This document shows positions 6,632-38,695 of a DNA stretch of 64,000 nucleotides, piece by piece. The DNA comes from an uncultured virus (IMG/VR IMGVR_UViG_3300050343_000171) (taxonomy: Duplodnaviria > Heunggongvirae > Uroviricota > Caudoviricetes > Crassvirales): IMG/VR virus record IMGVR_UViG_3300050343_000171; one strand, written 5' to 3'. The notes beneath the pieces are model-generated. The model was not told where the DNA came from. It saw only the letters and a program-made list of their open reading frames with translations, and searched no databases. Both the position numbers and the translations under genes were made by a program. The stretch's first letter is position 1. The number at the start of each line of letters is the position of its first letter.

Positions 6632-8366
6632 TTATCCATCACAACTAAGACAGCCGTCATCCATTGCTTGTTCAGCAATATCTCCACGTAACACTGACTC
6701 AGTACGAGTATAGTATAAAGTTTTAATACCTTTTTTCCAAGCTTCAAAATGTACTTTATTTATCCACTTAGGTGTAGCAACACTAGGAAAAGCTAAGTTT
6801 AAACTTACACTTTGATCTATATACTGCTGTCTGATACCAGCTTGATTAATTAACTCTAACTGATTAATCTCTTTAAATGTTTTAAATACATCTTTAGCTG
6901 GTATATCATTATAAGGACCAACCATAACTTTATTAAGTTCTTTTAACCCTTGTACTGATCCTCCGTCTTTTAAGATTTTAGACCAAGTAGTTTCATTATT
7001 GATTTTAAGTTTTCGAAAGAGCTTTAACCAATGTGGGATTTTTACGGATGAAAGTACCTTTAGCACTTTGCTCAGTAAATACATTAGCAGCCCAAGGCTC
7101 AATACCTGGAGATACATTACCGCTAAGCTTACTGTTACTAACAGTAGGAGCAATAGCCCTAAGATGAGTGTTGCGCAAACCAGTGCCGACACACCAAAGA
7201 GGTTCTCCAAACTCTTCAGCAAGAGCCATAGAGCTCTTTCAGATTCGATTTTAATTTGTGAAAATATTTTTCTTGTTTCATATTGTGATAATAACCTTCA
7301 AATGGTAAACCCTTTTCTTGTAGATACGTGTGCCAACCTAAAACGCCTAATCCTAAAGCTCTACCTTTTTCAGCAGATCTTACAGAATTATGAAATCCAA
7401 CTTTACCTTTGGATCTTTGTATAAACTCTTCTAATACACCATCTAAAAACCATATAGCTATCATGTATTAATATTTGTATTTTCCATTCATCATACTTAG
7501 CTAGATTTAAACTAGATAAACAACATATAAAGCTATGTTTTCATCTGTATGTAATGTTATCTCACTACATATGTTTGTCATATGTACTTTTAAACCGTTT
7601 TTTTGTAAGCTGTTGGGTTATTCTTGTTTGTATTTCCCTTAAATAAGCATATAAGGTTCTCCAGTAGCTTTACGCTTTTGAAGTAAGTTTTCCCCAACGT
7701 TTTCTAGCTTCTAACATCTCCTGTTTCAACTCTTCGCATGAACTTATCGCCGACCACAGCGCACTGGTGCAGGTTGAGCGATTGACGATTAACGTCTCCT
7801 TTAGGTTCACGTATTTCGAGCCACTCTTCAAAATCGGGGTGTTCAATGTTAATATTAACTGATGCAGCTCCTCGTCGGACAGATCCTTGATTAGTGGCAA
7901 GTATTGTTGAATCGTATATCTTACAAAAAGGCACAACGCCGTCACTTGTTCCATTTCCTTTTATTTTTGCACCAGCGGGTCTGATTTGATTTATACCGAT
8001 ACCAACTCCACCGCCGTGCTTTGCGAGTAGCATCATCTCTAGGTTTTTACTGTCCTATATCGTATATACTGTCAGCAACATCTATACCAAAACAACTGAT
8101 CGGTAAACCTCTGTCTGTCCCAGTATTAGACAACACAGGAGACGCAAGACATAACCAACCTGACCAAATGTATTCAAAAATTTTTCAGCCATATCAGGAC
8201 GTTCTAAACGTCTTGCTACAGTGTTACAAACTCTATCATAAGCATCTTTAGGTGTTTCATCTTTTAAAAGATAACCACCACCTATAGTTTTTTTATACAC
8301 ATCAGTGTCACCCCAACTAGGGTAATCAACTCCTTTTTTCCATTCATTATTCCACATCTGTTTCAA
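6632..8366 (-). CDS. nrdA: Ribonucleotide reductase class Ia large subunit (frameshifted in this sequence)
   Basis: Fragments contain KHGGGVGI, QGSVRRGAA, GRALGLGVLG, AIAPTVSNS, IDQSVSLN, KTLYY and C-terminal CLSCDG. Confidence 0.92.
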
Positions 8367-8737: not shown

Positions 8738-9718
8738 TTACCAAACATCTTCAAAGTCTTCGCCTTCATTTGCTTTACTATAGTCAGTCGGCCTAATAGC
8801 GAAAAAATCAGTGTGAGTGTGACCCCCAGTAAGATGGTCGAACCAAGCCATTTTATCAATTGACTTTTGGTCATATTCAAATTTAAATTTTCCTTCTGCT
8901 TTGTAGCCCAGTTCTTTAAGTTTATCACCTGTACGTTTTTTAATAAAATGTTTTAGGTCATATTCTGTTATTCCTTCAATATCACCCATTTCAAACAACT
9001 TAGATATATAAGTCATTTCAGCATTATGCATAGTTAAAGCTGCATCATATATATGCTCTTTGCATTCTTCTTTTAATCCTGGTATTTTCGAACACATATG
9101 TCTAAATAATTGACAACCCATTTTACTATGTAATGATTCATCTCTTACAGACCATTTCATTTGTTGGCCAATACCTTTTAATAAGTTTCTCATTTGAAAA
9201 CTATAAAGTACAGCAAAAGCAGAATATAAACTAACGCCTTCTGCAAACGCAGAAAATGTAGCTAATGATTTACCTATACCTACAGGATCATTACCTTCAT
9301 AAGCTACAAGATTATCAAATCTAGCAGCTGTAGCTGGTTCATGTAAAAAAGCTTCATAAGTCTTCAAGACCTAAGGTTTCATTTAAATAACTATATGCTA
9401 CTGCGTGAATCGTTTCTTGCGATCCAAACATCATAGCCATTTGTTGTATCTCGTGTTTAGGAAACCAAGATACAACTTTTTGCGTCCAGTAATCGGAGAC
9501 AGCGCATTCGGTTTGTGCAAAGCCTAAGTAGTATGTTACCTACTAAGGTTTTTTTCTTTATCAGTTAATTTTTCGTTCCAGTCTTTAACATCACCTGACA
9601 TAGGTATTTCAGTATGTAACCAAAATGCTTGAGCTTGTTTTAACCAACCTTCAGTGTAATACTCAGGGTATTCAAAAGGCTTGTACGGTATTCTTTCTGT
9701 AAATAGTGGTATTCCCAT
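8738..9718 (-). CDS. nrdB: Ribonucleotide reductase small subunit (frameshifted)
   Basis: YKPFEYP..AFWLHTEI..D.KDW, EGVSLYSAF, RDESLH and HTDFFA.RPTDYSK motifs. Confidence 0.92.
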
Positions 9719-11194: not shown

Positions 11195-11629
11195 TTAAAA
11201 ATACTCTGCAAAAGCTTTATTATATATGTAAGATCTATTATCATTATACATAGAAACTTTAGCGTTATCCATTATCCATTGTATTGTTTGCATATCTATG
11301 TAGAACTTACCGTGAGATGTTTCCCATTTTATATTCATATTATCCATAAGATGTCCTTTTAGTTTGTTTAAAGGAACTGCAAAAGTTGAAGTCTGTTCTG
11401 TTACGTTTATTTTCATTTTCTTAAAAAGGTTTTTATATTTTTTTCTATCTACCTTATAGCCATAAGACTTTTGAAGTTCTATCTCTTTGTCTGATATATA
11501 ATCTATATCATCCGACTGATCAAGAACTTCATATTCACTAGAGCTATAGCCCTGAATTAATGTAACACGAGTATTAAGATCACGTGTAACACCTATCTTT
11601 TTACCTGGTATGTGGTATAAATAATACAT
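11195..11629 (-). CDS. Hypothetical protein with a GIY-YIG-like N-terminus
   Basis: YYLYHIPGKKIGVTRDLNTRV resembles the GIY-YIG Y..(K)IG.T..L..R pattern. Confidence 0.45.
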   Translation of the reverse strand: MYYLYHIPGKKIGVTRDLNTRVTLIQGYSSSEYEVLDQSDDIDYISDKEIELQKSYGYKVDRKKYKNLFKKMKINVTEQTSTFAVPLNKLKGHLMDNMNIKWETSHGKFYIDMQTIQWIMDNAKVSMYNDNRSYIYNKAFAEYF

Positions 11630-12279
11630 ATTTTGTTATTTTATCGTTATACAAATGTAAGTTATGTGCGAAATGGTAATACGTACCGATCTCATATCCT
11701 GTCCTCTCTGAGACTAATTCTTGTAGCTTTGAAAAACAATACTGATCATTACAGAAACCGTACCAGAGATCATTAGAACGCATCACAACTGACATATTTA
11801 GTTTATTGTTTAATACTGTAAACTGAACCGCATAAGTACATGGCGTATCTTTAGCATAGTAATGATGTTCTTTACCATCATATATACTTATTGCCGCGTG
11901 TCTAGTATTAGGATTATCCTTAAGCTTTGCAACTACATAATCTAATTGATAGTTACGTTCCCATTGCCAACCGTAATTAGATCTTACTTCATTATTACCG
12001 TCAACCATTCGTTGCCATATCTCAGGTACTTTACCATATATCTCTCCTAACTTATCTACATTAGGATCACCTGATAAGTACCATTGCCATTCAGCTTCAG
12101 CATATTCTTTATTCCATTTTCTGTTTTTAGCTAGTATATGATTATCCATAGGGTTTTTCAATATAAAAACCTATATTAAATAAAGCTCTAGTATTATCAA
12201 ACTTAACACCATCAAACATTATTTTGGAAAAAAATAATTAAAATGCATCACTTGCTGTTTTAAATTTTGTTTTTATCAT
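11601..12279 (-). CDS. Thymidylate-synthase-fold enzyme, dCMP hydroxymethylase/methylase-like; N-terminus frameshifted
   Basis: YGWQW, DNPNTRHA, catalytic PC, MRSNDLWYGFCND and HNLHLY motifs. Confidence 0.85.
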
Positions 12280-18474: not shown

Positions 18475-19330
18475 TTACTCATAGTTACGAATAGTTTTAA
18501 ACAATGGATGTCTGTAACTACCGTATTGAGTACGTTCGAAATATGTAAACGTAGCTGTTTGGCCTATGTAGTCATGAATATTTTTAAGCATATTAGCTAG
18601 ATCTTTGTAGTTGTAGCCTTTACCTGGAGGACAACCAAACTCTGTTACCATCATCATCTTGCATTAAGAACTTGCCAAGAGTACCTTCACGTTTGCCTTT
18701 ACCTTCTTCATAGCCTACAATTGTAGCTTCGGTGTCATTAAAGTCTTTAAACTTTTGTAAGTTGTAAGATCGTTTTTGCTGATAAGGTTTGTCTAGACTT
18801 AATATAGAGCCTTCGTAACCGTTATTTAGATTATACTGATGTCTTAATGTTTGCAGCGTCTTTAGAATTAACTAGAGTAGTTTCTACATATTTAACACAG
18901 TAGGAATACATATCAGAACAAGCTAGTTGATTCATTCTGTAACCATAAGGCATCCATACTGTTTCTATATAGTCATAACAATGAAACTGTACTAATTCTT
19001 TCAGCTTCAGCTTTATCAGCATCAGTTGGTTTTTGTTTTCTGACTAATGATATAATCTTTTCAAAAGTCATCTTTAAGATCATGGTTGTACAATTCACCG
19101 TCGAGTACAACATCTACATTAGCATAGTCAAAGAAAAATTTGTTTAACGATAGTTTAATGTGTTCAAGATTGTGAAATTCTTTACCTGTACGTGAGAAAC
19201 ATCTGATGTTTTCTTTGTCGTCGACGTATATAACACACCTTACGCCGTCAAGCTTAGGTTGAATGTATACTTTCTCGGACCAGTCGACAGGTTTTTTGTC
19301 TACTTTGTATGCGAGCATTGGTTTAATCAT
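18475..19330 (-). CDS. ATP-dependent DNA ligase (frameshifted)
   Basis: PMLA, QPKLDGVRC, LDGELY, GYEGSILR, KRSYNLQKFK and YRHP. Confidence 0.9.
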
Positions 19331-20306: not shown

Positions 20307-20495
20307 TATACTAATTCTTCTACTATGCTGACTACTTCAGCAATTATTAATATTGTACGCCTAATGGTATAGATGACATTAGCAGTATAAAACCGCATAC
20401 TCTAAGCACAGATTTAACTACGCTTGCTGCAAAATGAGGAGTAAATTTACATCTCATTTGATCATTTATTCATATTTATTATTATTTAATGTTAG

Positions 20496-20568
20496 TTGAC
20501 TCGCTAGGGCTCGAACCTAGACTCTTCTGGACCAAAACCAGACGTGTTGCCAGTTACACCACGAGTCA
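20496..20568 (-). tRNA. tRNA-Gln(UUG); CCA not encoded
   Basis: Cloverleaf with TGACTCG/CGAGTCA acceptor, TCTGG-TTTTGGT-CCAGA anticodon arm and GGTTCGAG T loop. Confidence 0.93.
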
Positions 20569-20825: not shown

Positions 20826-21080
20826 TTAGGTAATTGTGTTTTGTTTTTCATAATCTAAGTAATCTATTTTTTCGTGATCTTTTTCTATTAATGAAGCTAT
20901 GTAATCCCACACGTCTCGTTGTCTTTTAGTGTGATCTAACACGCCTTGAAGTTGTTCTATAGTAATAAAAGGAGTTTGATTATCTTTTATTTCTTGCTTT
21001 AACCTGCTAATGTCATTGTCTAGTGAATATATAGTAGCAAAAGCTTTGTCATGTGCTCTGTTTTGTATATCTTTTTCCAT
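20826..21080 (-). CDS. Hypothetical protein
   Basis: 84-aa ORF. Confidence 0.6.
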   Translation of the reverse strand: MEKDIQNRAHDKAFATIYSLDNDISRLKQEIKDNQTPFITIEQLQGVLDHTKRQRDVWDYIASLIEKDHEKIDYLDYEKQNTIT

Positions 21081-21081
21081 A

Positions 21082-21315
21082 TTATTTGTTAATTATAGAG
21101 TTACCATACATTATATCTTGAGCAGATAAATTGTAAGTTTTTATGTCACAGTATACTGATATATCAGATATTTGACTTACAGTTAAGTCATACCATGATG
21201 TTTCAGACATAAGTGCATACTTAAGTCTTTTAGCGCTAGAATATTTTCTAGCATTTTCTTGTAGTGACAACTTAAAACCTGGTTTTAGTCTGTCATAAAT
21301 TGTTTTTAATTTCAT
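21082..21315 (-). CDS. Hypothetical protein
   Basis: 77-aa ORF starting directly after a class I motif. Confidence 0.65.
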   Translation of the reverse strand: MKLKTIYDRLKPGFKLSLQENARKYSSAKRLKYALMSETSWYDLTVSQISDISVYCDIKTYNLSAQDIMYGNSIINK

Positions 21316-21352
21316 ATTTATATTATCCGTTTTAATTTGTATTTAGTTTGTA
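21313..21352 (-). promoter_or_regulatory. Class I repeated promoter-like motif
   Basis: TACAAACTAAATACAAATTAAAACGGATAATATAAATATG. Confidence 0.75.
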
Positions 21353-21574
21353 ACAAATCTTTCTCTTATCTACTATCGATTATTTCACCGATGTCGATCT
21401 TGCATAGCTACTACATCCATAGCTAAGTAGTTGTAGTTCAGCTAATCCATCAACTTCATAGGTACTCATGTAATCATTGAAGTCATTATCTTGTATAGCG
21501 TTTACACAGTCTCTCTAACGCTCTTGCAGTATTCTCAAACCTGCAGTAACTCATGTTTGGCCATTTAATGTTAG

Positions 21575-21640
21575 TTGCGGCGGAAGGATTCGAACCCCCG
21601 ACCTTCGGGTTATGAGCCCGACGAACTGCTCTACGCCGCA
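21575..21640 (-). tRNA. tRNA-Met(CAU), initiator-like; D arm appears about 7 nt short
   Basis: TGCGGCG/CGCCGCA acceptor, TCGGG-CTCATAA-CCCGA with three G-C pairs, GGTTCGAATCC. Confidence 0.85.
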
Positions 21641-21645
21641 TTTAG

Positions 21646-21725
21646 TGGAAGTGGGCGGAGTCGAACCGCCGTTATACTTAACACCATGCTATTTATGGGT
21701 ATTCAAGTCTTACCTTATCACTCCC
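21646..21725 (-). ncRNA. tRNA-like RNA resembling an isolated tmRNA tRNA-like domain
   Basis: GGGAGTG/CACTTCC-A acceptor with G3:U70, unpaired D region ATAAGGTAAGAC, irregular long stem, T arm GGCGG-TTCGACT-CCGCC. Confidence 0.65.
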
Positions 21726-21728
21726 ATT

Positions 21729-21870
21729 TCGAGGCACCAGTTGTGGACAGGTAGTTAACTAGTATTGTCATTTATCCACACTTTCTGTTTCGTACTGGCA
21801 CAGTCGTATCCATCCGTTTGGTTCATAACTGTCCGATCTACCTAACGTGACCTGTATGCCGCCGCCTCGA
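21729..21870 (-). ncRNA. Candidate multi-branch structured RNA
   Basis: Closing stem TCGAGGC/GCCTCGA with internal GGCATA/TGTGCC and TGTGGATA/TGTCCACA stems; GC-rich; no ORF called. Confidence 0.5.
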
Positions 21871-21872
21871 TT

Positions 21873-21959
21873 GTAACAAGCATTGGAGGATCTTCGTTAG
21901 TTAACAACACATCCATCCTATTTGTACTGTTGCATACTAAGCCCTTTACCGCTTGCTAC
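21873..21959 (-). ncRNA. Candidate rod-like hairpin RNA
   Basis: GTAGCAAGCG/TGCTTGTTAC closing stem with nested TTAGT/ACTAA and GCAACA/TGTTGT. Confidence 0.45.
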
Positions 21960-22148
21960 TTATTTTCTACGCCAAGCTTTGTGTACTTGATCGCTTAGCT
22001 CTTGGCTTACTATTTGTAATTCAAGAACTTGTTTGTTAGCAATAATAGGAATATAACTATATTGCTGTGTTGCGCTGCAGTTTACACAATTTGAATAACC
22101 TAATGCTATTCTGCCTGCCGGTATTTTGTTGTTACATTTACATCTCAT
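21960..22148 (-). CDS. Small Zn-finger protein, DksA/TraR C4-like; likely start MRCKC
   Basis: CKC.NKIPAGRIALGYSNCVNC. Confidence 0.6.
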   Translation of the reverse strand: MRCKCNNKIPAGRIALGYSNCVNCSATQQYSYIPIIANKQVLELQIVSQELSDQVHKAWRRK

Positions 22149-22185
22149 ATTTATATTATCCAATTATGTTCGTATTTAGTTTGTA
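22146..22185 (-). promoter_or_regulatory. Class I repeated promoter-like motif
   Basis: TACAAACTAAATACGAACATAATTGGATAATATAAATATG. Confidence 0.75.
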
Positions 22186-22186
22186 A

Positions 22187-22648
22187 TTAGTCTTCATCTA
22201 AACCTGCATGTAATTTTTCTATTGTAGCACACATAATCATGTGCATTAATTGATTGTACTCGTCACCTTCTAGTTTGTCATGATCTAGTTCTGAACCATC
22301 AATAGCCCACTGAACAGAGTCATATAACGTTTCTTTGATGTAAGAGACTTGAGCGTCTGCTATTTCATCTATAATTTTCATTTTACTCATATCTTTATTT
22401 ATTAATTTTAATTGGTTTAAGTCGTATTTCCGTGTAGTATCACGCCACATTTTATGCATTGTGTACTTACTTACTTGATTATACGAAGATTTACCTCGTA
22501 TTTTTACTTGTTTGTACTCGCGATCAGTAAATGGTTGGCATTCACCATGCACTTTATTGATCTGATAGTGCTGAAACGCACGCTTTTTTCTGTTAGAAGC
22601 AACGTATTGCTTCAGCTCTTGCATATTACTACACATAGATTCTATCAT
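22187..22648 (-). CDS. Hypothetical protein; may be two genes joined by an indel
   Basis: 153-aa ORF with a basic N-terminal half and an acidic C-terminal half. Confidence 0.5.
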   Translation of the reverse strand: MIESMCSNMQELKQYVASNRKKRAFQHYQINKVHGECQPFTDREYKQVKIRGKSSYNQVSKYTMHKMWRDTTRKYDLNQLKLINKDMSKMKIIDEIADAQVSYIKETLYDSVQWAIDGSELDHDKLEGDEYNQLMHMIMCATIEKLHAGLDED

Positions 22649-22772
22649 TTATAGTATACCAGTTTAAGTAATCTGTGTATTCTACGTTTTGATGTAGTCT
22701 AGTTAGAGCTTTGTAGCCATTATCTGTTTCGATAATAGCATTGCCAGTTTCTTGATTGAATTTGATTTTTTT

Positions 22773-22814
22773 CATATATAATTATTATCCGTTAGTTATC
22801 GTATTTAGTTTGTA
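22773..22814 (-). promoter_or_regulatory. Class I repeated promoter-like motif
   Basis: TACAAACTAAATACGATAACTAACGGATAATAATTATATATG. Confidence 0.75.
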
Positions 22815-37153: not shown

Positions 37154-38695
37154 ATGTCAAATGCAATTGTAAAAAATCTGAACTTTGGTTCGGATGCTAA
37201 AAACAATGTGTTTGCTGGTATTACAAAACTTACACAAGCCGTTAGCTCCACACTAGGAGCTAGTGGCAAATGTGTTATGTTAGAAGATAGTACTGGTCAA
37301 CCTATTATTACAAAAGATGGTGTAACTGTAGCTGAAGCTATTACACTTCTTGATCCTGTTGAAAACATGGGAGCAACATTACTTAAACAAGCCGCAAAGA
37401 AAACTGTTAGTGAAGCAGGTGATGGAACCACTACAGCAACCGTATTGGCTCATGCTATACTAAGTGAAGCATATAAAGTAATAACAAAAGAAAACTCAAG
37501 AGAAGTAAAAGAAAGTATACTTACAGCTACAAACAAAGTAGTTGATTACTTAGATTCTATAGTAACACCAGTAGATGGTGATATGATAGATCAAGTTGCT
37601 ACAATATCTACAAATAATGATCCCATACTTGGTAAAATTATTGCAGATGCTTTTAGATCAGTTGATCAAACAGGTGTAGTGATGCTAGAGGTTTCTGATT
37701 TACCAGAAACTAATTTTGAAACTATTGATGGTGTACAATATGATAGAGGATTAAAAAATATACATTTTGTAACTAATCAAGATACTAAAACAGCTGAACT
37801 AGATAAACCTTTAGTTTTAATCGTAGAGTCAGAGGTTGAAAATGTAAGAAAAATACAAAGTGTTTTAGAGTATGCTATAAAGAATAAAAGATCATTACTT
37901 ATTATTGCTGATATTGATCAACAAGTTATGTCAGCTTTAGCAATGAACAAAATAAAAGGTAATATTAAAGTAAATGTTATCGATGCACCTATCTATGGTG
38001 TAAATAAAAAAGAAACACTAGAAGATTTAGCGTTACTTACAGGTGCTACAGTTATTAATGAAGATCTTGGAGATGATATTGATTTAATACAACCTGAGCA
38101 ACTTGGTGAATGTAAGAAAACAATAACTAGTGAGCATGAAACCATATTGCAAGTTCATGAGGTAAATAAAGAAGTCAAAGATTTAATTGAAGATATAAAA
38201 GCTAAACTTAAAACAGCTAAACACCCAGGTATTATAATTAATAATGAAAAAAGATTAGCTAGATTATCAGGTAAAGTTGCTATTGTAAAGGTTGGTGCTA
38301 ATTCCGAGGTTGAATTAAAAGAAAAACGTGATAGAGTTGAAGATGCTATCTGTGCTACTAAAGCTGCTATCAAAGAAGGTATTGTACCTGGTGGTGGTAT
38401 TGCTTTATTAAATGCATCACAAGAAATAGATACTTCAAACTCTTTAGAAAAAATACTTTTAAGAGCTATTAAATCCCCTTTCAATACAATACTTGCTAAT
38501 GCTGGTATTAAAAATGAAAAGTTTTTTAATCAAGAAGGTAAAGGTCTAAACGTTGTTACAGGAAATATGGTAAATATGATTGAGTCAGGGATTATTGATC
38601 CTTTACTCGTCACAAAAAGTGCATTAAAAAATGCTAGCTCTGTGGCTAGAACTATTTTATCAACCGATTGTGTAATTAATAATCTTAAGAATTAA
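37154..38695 (+). CDS. groEL: Phage chaperonin GroEL
   Basis: ITKDGVTVA, AGDGTTTATVLA, KVGA.SEVELKEK.DRVEDA..ATKAAI.EGIVPGGG and GIIDP..VT.SAL.NA.S. Confidence 0.97.
   Translation: MSNAIVKNLNFGSDAKNNVFAGITKLTQAVSSTLGASGKCVMLEDSTGQPIITKDGVTVAEAITLLDPVENMGATLLKQAAKKTVSEAGDGTTTATVLAHAILSEAYKVITKENSREVKESILTATNKVVDYLDSIVTPVDGDMIDQVATISTNNDPILGKIIADAFRSVDQTGVVMLEVSDLPETNFETIDGVQYDRGLKNIHFVTNQDTKTAELDKPLVLIVESEVENVRKIQSVLEYAIKNKRSLLIIADIDQQVMSALAMNKIKGNIKVNVIDAPIYGVNKKETLEDLALLTGATVINEDLGDDIDLIQPEQLGECKKTITSEHETILQVHEVNKEVKDLIEDIKAKLKTAKHPGIIINNEKRLARLSGKVAIVKVGANSEVELKEKRDRVEDAICATKAAIKEGIVPGGGIALLNASQEIDTSNSLEKILLRAIKSPFNTILANAGIKNEKFFNQEGKGLNVVTGNMVNMIESGIIDPLLVTKSALKNASSVARTILSTDCVINNLKN

Follow-up and report, generated by a model that had tools for sequence, protein, structure and literature searches.

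A conserved modular array of structured RNAs with a predicted tag-less mini-tmRNA in an uncultured marine podophage

Introduction

The closest described counterpart of the RNA reported here belongs to mycobacteriophage DS6A, for which the tmRNA Website lists an ssrA consisting of only the tRNA-like domain (TLD) of transfer-messenger RNA (tmRNA), as noted in two articles (PMC4131195, PMC11915505). According to both, a similar molecule is a strong inhibitor of tmRNA in E. coli and may act by titrating SmpB (PMC4131195, PMC11915505). We describe an array of four structured RNAs at positions 21,575 to 21,959 of a 64,000-nucleotide (nt) stretch of DNA from an uncultured virus of the Crassvirales (IMG/VR record IMGVR_UViG_3300050343_000171); this whole stretch is referred to as the window. 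Judged from its sequence, the third unit of the array is a tag-less mini-tmRNA, which by the published definition is of the DS6A type without a coding sequence (PMC4131195, PMC11915505).

The two have in common that a phage tmRNA has been cut down to about the tRNA-like domain, without a tag frame, and interference with the host tmRNA-SmpB system would be expected of both. Both articles cite Mao et al. 2009 as the primary paper. DS6A is an actinophage, whereas the window comes from a marine podophage of the Flavobacteriia type, and thus from another phage lineage with another host phylum. The window TLD has no encoded CCA, has family members in dozens of viral contigs, and lies among other structured RNAs and an apparently initiator-type tRNA in a closely packed array; DS6A is likened to it by description, not by sequence. 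A sequence-only reading of the window had inferred an early transcript that RNase P/Z-type cleavage turns into a set of host-RNA mimics, which could be an undescribed cassette for host takeover or against defence. This reading is supported in part. The word undescribed is too strong for the mini-tmRNA, as a TLD-only tmRNA has been published for DS6A (PMC4131195, PMC11915505), and the word mimic suits the TLD, which is recognisable as one, but not the first two units, M0 and M2, which are unmatched in Rfam 15. Tag-less mini-tmRNAs are known but barely studied, and here one is part of an RNA cassette, conserved and modular, that many uncultured marine phages with nearest cultured relatives on Flavobacteriia share. 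Besides the mini-tmRNA, there are at least two further RNA units in the window (M0 and M2) and one in relatives (M1), all without an Rfam 15 match.

In the tRNA region of phage T4, the small RNAs RNAC and RNAD (also called species 1 and species 2 RNA) are cut from a common precursor by tRNA-processing enzymes. Their functions are given as yet unknown in PMC9697503. M0 and M2 are likened to them by description only, as small, stable, structured RNAs beside phage tRNA genes; T4 differs in its host and phage type and has no tmRNA-like unit. The cassette, with its two units that are unmatched in Rfam 15, is a variation on the known theme of phage small RNAs linked to tRNAs.

Reduced tmRNAs also occur outside phages. 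Jakobid mitochondria and some plastids have tmRNAs without an mRNA-like domain, like the TLD, and these are thought to aid stalled ribosomes (PMC11915505; see also PMC3590771); they use an organelle-targeted SmpB, whereas the viral TLD must use that of the host. Complete phage tmRNAs, in one piece or permuted, are mentioned for Melnitz and other phages (PMC9004378) and for Cellulophaga phage Calle (PMC8776804). These and the window TLD are all phage-borne genes of the ssrA type, and some of the former lie near tRNA clusters. However, the complete tmRNAs keep the tag template and the pseudoknots, and the 83-nt window TLD has neither.

Array layout

All features of the array, and the open reading frame (ORF) that precedes it, lie on the minus strand of the window (Table 1). 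The sequence-only reading had described four tightly packed structured RNAs, each with its own closing stem, that begin right behind the stop codon of a small zinc-finger gene and are richer in G+C than their surroundings. This description holds. The minimum free energy fold of 21959–21575 (385 nt) consists of four separately closed domains of 87, ~142, 83 and 66 nt, and Rfam matches and covariation in relatives agree with it. The array starts at the next base after the zinc-finger ORF, and its G+C content is 47.5%, compared with 30–33% in the flanks. The spacers between the units are 4–5 nt long: AAUC between M0 and M2, GAAAU between M2 and the TLD, and (A)CUAAA between the TLD and the tRNA. 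The same reading had seen the second unit as a 142-nt multibranch RNA. It is indeed a structured unit; however, instead of a plain multibranch loop it has a closing stem, a pseudoknot and a variable inserted hairpin.

A cmscan search, which that reading had suggested together with a study of synteny and covariation, matched the Rfam tmRNA model to the TLD (E-value 8.9e-13) and the tRNA model to the tRNA-Met, and left M0 and M2 unmatched. In related IMG/VR viral contigs, which are hereafter called relatives and carry L-numbers where single loci have to be named, the fold of each unit is kept with compensatory changes. The fold-energy z-scores are −2.29 for M0, −1.01 for M2, −2.57 for the TLD, −1.34 for the tRNA-Met and −1.85 for the entire array. 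Because these energies are unconvincing, our case rests on the model matches (Rfam E-values) and on covariation in the relatives.

Table 1. Features of the RNA array and of the sequence upstream of it, in window coordinates.
Feature	Position	Strand	Basis and remarks
Unit M0, 87-nt rod hairpin RNA	21873..21959	-	fold, viral-contig motif, RNAalifold
Unit M2, 138-nt RNA, P1 and H-type pseudoknot	21731..21868	-	alignment A1, covariation
Predicted mini-tmRNA tRNA-like domain (TLD), 83 nt	21643..21725	-	Rfam RF00023, own covariance model R1
tRNA-Met(CAU), predicted initiator type	21575..21640	-	ARAGORN and Rfam (start 21574/5)
M2 P1 5' strand	21863..21868, pairs with 21731-21736	-	99% paired; both-side changes in 3 pairs
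M2 S1 5' strand ACAGGU, 6 base pairs	21850..21855, pairs with 21747-21752 (ACCUGU)	-	100% paired
M2 S2 5' strand, 5 base pairs	21776..21780, pairs with 21742-21746, crosses S1	-	100% paired
62-amino-acid Cx1C...Cx2C zinc-finger ORF	21960..22148	-	ORF list, sequence
15-nt repeated motif TTACAAACTAAATAC upstream of zinc-finger ORF	22172..22186	-	motif count

The tRNA-like domain

The match of the tmRNA model RF00023 to the third unit includes both ends of the model and deletes about 300 of its positions (Rfam E-value threshold, 3 kb searched). The unit is composed of a 7-base-pair acceptor stem with a G3:U70 pair, a tmRNA-type 5' segment with the D-loop analogue GAUAAGGUAAG, and a T-arm with a 7-nt T-loop. 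It ends with the discriminator A, followed by CUA in place of CCA. A single short hairpin stands where the mRNA-like domain and the pseudoknot body would be, and the ring of tmRNA pseudoknots (PK1–PK4) is absent from the window TLD in both the Rfam alignment and the fold. There is no tag reading frame in the TLD: the 5' segment and the T-arm are separated by about 40 nt that vary in length and sequence, and no frame is conserved. A mini tag frame that had been noticed by eye inside the window TLD was dropped, as it is not conserved in the relative L008.

The features that define the unit are strongly conserved. Among 22 distinct TLDs that were aligned, all 264 of the 264 cells of the acceptor and T-stems pair, and five pairs covary; pair 4:69, for example, is A-U in 11 sequences, C-G in seven and G-C in four. 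G3:U70 is present in 21 of the 22 and the A-CUA end in all of them. With our own covariance model, R1, the window TLD scores 78.5 bits. The TLD units of relatives span 76–146 nt, and the final 26 nt of the window unit occur exactly in 21 viral contigs. All 20 scanned loci with this 26-nt end match the tmRNA model, 17 of them over 77–110 nt; of the remaining three, one is 389 nt long, one spans 240 nt at 21.8 bits, and one is cut by the contig end. The TLD was also found through other anchors. It is present in 13 of 20 loci retrieved by the unrelated M1 motif, where four TLDs of about 81 nt score 64–69 bits and thus exceed the Rfam cut-off, and it lies downstream of the zinc-finger gene in 22 of 38 loci anchored on that gene (model R1). 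The 26-nt 3' end was found in one of the 32.2 million genome contigs scanned, a 903-base contig with the same phage-type array; therefore, the TLD end is not copied from a known host ssrA end.

One relative, L006, carries a complete tmRNA of 389 nt on its minus strand (1499–1887; 77.2 bits), which shares its final 26 nt with the mini-TLDs. Its tag frame, as read by eye, ends in ...AEEVAVA.

Units M2 and M0

About 17 distinct homologues of M2, 74–161 nt in length, were found, and 16 distinct sequences make up alignment A1. The common fold has a closing stem (P1), a stem S1, a stem S2 that crosses S1 to form an H-type pseudoknot, an invariant 22-nt loop, and a site at which hairpins of variable size are inserted. 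In A1, 96.1% of the stem cells are paired, compared with 32–51% when the partners are slid against each other. Six pairs have changed on both sides, and the covariation score was equalled by none of 500 shuffles. The pseudoknot itself is supported by the interleaving of S1 and S2, both paired throughout, with one and two covarying pairs, respectively. The covarying pair of S1 is A-U in 11 sequences, U-G in four and U-A in one, and two pairs of S2 go from U-A to C-G in four of the 16 sequences.

M0 consists of an outer stem that varies, the two stems GAGGG/UCCUC and UUAGU/GCUAA, the 3' bulge CGAAGA and a tip that also varies. Its core motif occurs in 21 viral contigs. RNAalifold predicted 23 pairs for 16 M0 sequences, with compensatory changes in 12 of the 23. 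The outer stem differs in nearly every lineage, and the bulge CGAAGA is invariant. In some relatives, M0 precedes the unit M1 described below. M0 and M2 (21731–21959) matched none of the 4227 Rfam 15 families, even at an E-value of 10, nor did Rfam match the equivalent parts of 40 related loci. The conserved loops and interchangeable tips suggest that M0 and M2 are stable scaffolds that present binding sites for proteins or RNAs. Owing to their clear covariation and invariant loops, M0, M2 and M1 are defined candidates for work on structure and function.

These patterns bear on the possibility that the stretch codes for a protein, perhaps a frameshifted one, the case that the sequence-only reading had named against its own proposal. 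Mechanically predicted ORFs of 48–59 amino acids do overlap the array (21486–21641, minus strand; 21575–21754 and 21612–21758, plus strand). However, they run straight through the tRNA and the TLD, the substitutions are paired across stems, the indels among relatives are of many lengths (M2, 74–161 nt; TLD, 76–146 nt), and whole units are swapped between relatives. A coding origin was not borne out, and we attach hardly any probability to it.

The position of M2 is as constant as its fold. Of 24 distinct contexts, 23 have a tRNA-shaped unit 2–6 nt behind the end of M2, namely the TLD in 20 and tRNA-Met in three; the same adjacency is seen in eight of nine contexts retrieved without the TLD motif. 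This arrangement fits a prediction of the punctuation model, in which M2 would be released by tRNA-processing enzymes. A similar role is known for the t-elements of plant mitochondria, tRNA-shaped signals for RNase P and RNase Z that mark the ends of neighbouring transcripts (see PMC1920247); the TLD is alike in shape. It could be imagined that the TLD, perhaps with the damaged tRNA-Met, is such a cleavage signal and nothing else, neither charged nor bound by SmpB, which sets the ends of M0, M2 and neighbouring mRNAs, with M0 and M2 as the actual products. The replacement of the TLD by tRNA-Met in three of the 24 contexts agrees with this, as do other anticodon-less tRNA-like units in relatives, for example one in L019 with A3:U70. 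On the other hand, G3:U70 is kept in 21 of 22 TLDs, and a 5' segment of the tmRNA type (GUGAUAAGG, GUGAAAUGG or similar) is maintained while the stems covary. Both speak against a pure signal because RNase P requires neither; the TLD retains tmRNA-specific identity features that a t-element does not need. Moreover, four relatives score above the Rfam tmRNA cut-off, and in five others (L159, L172, L184, L185 and L188) the TLD follows the zinc-finger gene directly, with no M0, M1 or M2 to release. We regard a role as punctuation only as possible but improbable.

Several resemblances that had been noticed by eye were dropped. Pairing of M2 with M0 or with tRNA-Met is not conserved, and hammerhead or other ribozyme cores, a k-turn, and likenesses to signal recognition particle RNA and RNase P RNA were set aside without a test or conservation.

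Modularity in relatives

Relatives differ in the combination of units that they carry between the zinc-finger gene and the gene after it. The TLD alone, M1 with TLD, M1 with M2, TLD and tRNA, two TLDs, and other anticodon-less tRNA-like units were all observed. The combination of the window recurs in only one contig among the 38 zinc-finger-anchored loci. On a smaller scale, tip modules move between scaffolds.

The module ...CCAAAYRGAUGGAU... illustrates such movement: it lies at the tip of M0 (21922) and within the insert of M2 (21819) in the window, and at the tip of the TLD in a relative (L029/L005). Other pseudoknot-like modules are nested in the TLD or in M1, or stand alone as hairpins, depending on the relative. 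M1 is a rod RNA without an Rfam match that is absent from the window and present in 68 viral contigs (L061–L128), with the core GACGAGUAGCUUAAUUAGG ... CACAUAAGUGAAU. M1, for example at L062:1195–1275, has a closing stem that covaries and tip inserts that vary widely. The AGUA/GAA arrangement of M1 is like a loop-E (bulged-G) motif. In L020, L075, L096 and L108, the M1 core is one branch of a larger closed RNA (GUGAGG...CCUCAC) with crossing helices of its own, and the 3' end of this RNA is similar to that of M2. Many relatives have an anticodon-less tRNA-like unit, GGGAACUAGGUCAGGU ... GGUUCGAAUCCUCACUAGUUAC (L062:1277–1362), between M1 and the TLD; its 5' part is similar to the 5' part of M2.

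The exchange of modules raises the question of whether the cassette is a tmRNA taken apart, that is, a complete phage tmRNA whose body was split into M0, M1 or M2 and a TLD, each with its own stems, that still act jointly in ribosome rescue. The complete tmRNA of L006 shares the 26-nt end of the mini-TLDs, the same pseudoknot and tip modules are nested in the TLD of some relatives and stand alone or in other units elsewhere, M2 is itself a pseudoknot RNA, and the annotated tmRNA of Maribacter phage Panino reads as a permuted gene. The models are less favourable. The Rfam tmRNA model scores neither M0 nor M2; forced over M2 and the TLD in L002, which is cut by the contig end, it gives 19.8 bits, less than for the TLD alone, and Rfam alignments over both units in L002 and L014 left the interior unaligned. 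The window units have no conserved tag reading frame, and a tag template that is not joined to the TLD has no known route onto the ribosome. A likeness of the M1 core to the end of the L006 tag frame was seen by eye only, and M1 is not in the window. We therefore think it unlikely that the units are the parts of one tmRNA.

A broader proposal is that M0 and M2, together with M1 in relatives, represent new classes of phage RNA in an RNA-only cassette, perhaps a disassembled tmRNA, that reprograms or protects host translation during infection. These RNAs would be stable scaffolds with exchangeable tips, freed by tRNA-processing enzymes beside the tag-less tmRNA and the initiator tRNA, and the units could serve, for example, as decoys for ribosome-rescue factors or for defence nucleases that target tRNAs. 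We consider this rather improbable.

In the Panino record (PP540027.1, 27513–27899; L197), the annotated 333-nt tmRNA overlaps an annotated tRNA-Asp and an annotated tRNA-Thr. The T-arm and 3' acceptor strand come first, and a tmRNA-type 5' end follows about 35 nt later; this corresponds to the arrangement in a permuted two-piece gene. The coordinates of the tmRNA in this record look wrong.

The tRNA-Met unit

The fourth unit was called as Met(cat) by ARAGORN and scores 50.6 bits with the Rfam tRNA model (cut-off 29). Initiator tRNA-fMet is characterized by three G-C pairs at the base of the anticodon stem, an unpaired or weak 1:72 position and A11:U24. The unit has three G-C pairs (GGG/CCC) around the loop CUCAUAA, as do its counterparts in relatives. 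Position 1:72 is U1:A72 in the Rfam alignment, which is a weak pair and not a mismatch. The tRNA-Met copies of L008 and L005 have a full D-arm with A11:U24. By these criteria, the tRNA-Met is predicted to be of the initiator type. Compared with L008, which is 93% identical over the region, and with L005, the window copy is missing 7 nt in the D-arm. It forms no D-stem, whereas the intact copy of L008 folds as a cloverleaf.

Contigs over the tRNA-Met that were assembled from RNA and DNA sequencing runs are also about 7 letters longer than the window. Downstream of the array, a small ORF (MSYCRFENT...; 21486–21554, minus strand) meets a stop after 22 codons, and its homology goes on in another frame; the counterpart in L062 is 67 amino acids long.

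The 7-nt deletion, the broken downstream ORF and the many fragmented genes of the window could be taken as signs that the array consists of decaying relics of tRNA or tmRNA genes, or of an attachment site, without a present function. Integration at ssrA 3' ends is common among phages, and tmRNA is discussed as an integration site in the paper on Panino (PMC11590407), which can be counted on the same side. However, the TLD has both acceptor strands, and an attP would have the 3' part only; its 26-nt 3' end, present in one of the 32.2 million genome contigs scanned, is no copy of the ssrA end of a known host; and none of the scanned window ORFs matched an integrase family. No stem pair is broken in any of the 22 TLDs, and M0 and M2 covary as well. 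Judged by the alignments, decay, like protein coding, matches the patterns of covariation and indels poorly, and it is a very unlikely explanation.

Proposed mode of action

The explanation that we favour, with somewhat better than even confidence in it as a whole, is that the array is a conserved non-coding RNA cassette that is processed by tRNA enzymes and whose TLD acts on the tmRNA-SmpB system of the host. We infer co-transcription, cleavage, charging, SmpB binding and an effect on the host as follows. The array would be transcribed together with the zinc-finger gene, probably from the repeated motif upstream of that gene. The TLD and the tRNA-Met are plausible substrates of RNase P and RNase Z. 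Host RNase P would cut at their 5' ends, and the same cut would leave M2 with its 3' end. For the TLD and the tRNA, the 3' ends would arise by RNase Z-type cleavage or by trimming, followed by CCA addition, because CCA is not encoded and the conserved A-CUA stands behind each unit. The trailer CUAACAUUAAAU is common to tRNA-Met and the tRNA-Gln of the window. Since G3:U70, the identity pair for alanine, and the D-loop analogue that faces SmpB are kept, the TLD should be charged with alanine and bound by host SmpB. It may then compete with the host tmRNA and block the tagging of stalled products, or it may free stalled ribosomes without tagging. The tRNA-fMet-like gene may supplement or replace the host initiator tRNA. 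The 64 window ORFs that were scanned against Pfam yielded no SmpB family and no CCA-adding enzyme family, so that host factors would be needed; nor did they yield an integrase family.

Several observations weigh against this explanation. The window TLD scores 37.5 bits against RF00023 (E-value 8.9e-13) and does not reach the gathering score of 47, and ARAGORN calls no tmRNA in the window. No TLD lies within 1.5 kb in 16 of the 38 zinc-finger-anchored relatives; therefore, the cassette is dispensable. The thermodynamic z-scores are weak on their own (−1.0 for M2), and the covariation in S1 and S2 derives from few independent events, as the changes in S2 belong to one group of four sequences. 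Nothing tRNA-like lies between M0 and M2, and so RNase P and RNase Z alone cannot free M0. Owing to the loss in its D-arm, the window copy of the tRNA-Met may be non-working. The fragmented genes for the subunits of RNR, for ThyA and for a ligase, as well as the broken ORF behind the array, indicate that the record may contain indel errors or be decaying. Finally, the contigs from four sequencing runs (three RNA libraries and one DNA library) cover relatives of the region but, being contigs, carry no information on transcription, RNA ends, strand or abundance. A very high depth over the tRNA in these runs stems from short conserved tRNA contigs.

Should RNase P and RNase Z release the units, and should these act on ribosome rescue, on initiation or on defence directed at tRNAs, the cassette would be a means of phage control over host translation by RNA only. 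It also points to a gap in annotation, as standard tools miss these genes: ARAGORN finds no tmRNA, and the Rfam cut-off is not reached.

Genome setting and neighbouring genes

The cassette lies in a minus-strand block of small genes and DNA-metabolism genes. The window encodes a crAss-type muzzle C-terminal domain, a Toprim/DnaB primase-helicase, tail-spike chaperone domains, ERF, an exonuclease, RNR and ThyA. The RNR large and small subunits, ThyA and the ligase were detected only as Pfam or PHROG profile fragments (6635–8036, 8741–9367, 11604–12161 and 18831–19330, minus strand), a sign of indel errors or of genes that are interrupted or decaying. A related viral contig of 64.6 kb is rated 100% complete; therefore, the window represents almost all of the genome, about 64 kb in size, of an uncultured marine podophage. 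A 506-amino-acid structural protein matched 85 phage records at less than 60% identity, with Flavobacterium, Cellulophaga and Maribacter as hosts, and the nearest cultured relatives of the phage infect Flavobacteriia.

No cultured phage with the cassette was found by our searches. The array region is not present in the nearest record (G001), and blastn of this region against cultured phages matched the tRNA-Met alone. Nothing in cultured phages was matched by the array of one relative, by the L006 tmRNA or, with tblastn, by the zinc-finger protein. The M0, M1 and M2 motifs do not occur in the three nearest phage records, two of which are from cultured phages.

The zinc-finger ORF has homologues in 115 protein clusters, all of which lack a Pfam domain, and its cysteines are invariant or nearly so across homologues. 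The protein itself had no Pfam match even at an E-value of 10 and no PHROG family, and its AlphaFold model (mean predicted local distance difference test score 73.9) had no PDB match at an E-value of 0.001 or below. A likeness to TraR/DksA-type fingers was considered, but no Pfam match up to an E-value of 10 backs it. The upstream motif TTACAAACTAAATAC has six minus-strand matches in the window, compared with 1.14 expected, and none of 100 shuffles reached six. It is found again at syntenic places in relatives and may be a phage promoter or leader element. A sigma-70 promoter scan gave results at chance level, and a terminator scan found no minus-strand terminator in 21000–22800.

ARAGORN and Rfam at the gathering score found two tRNAs in the window, Met (21574–21640) and Gln (20495–20568). 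The latter, a tRNA-Gln(UUG) on the minus strand, is followed by the trailer CUAACAUUAAAU, which is identical to that of tRNA-Met. The window also encodes a GroEL-like chaperonin at 37154–38692 on the plus strand (Cpn60_TCP1, E-value 2.6e-59).

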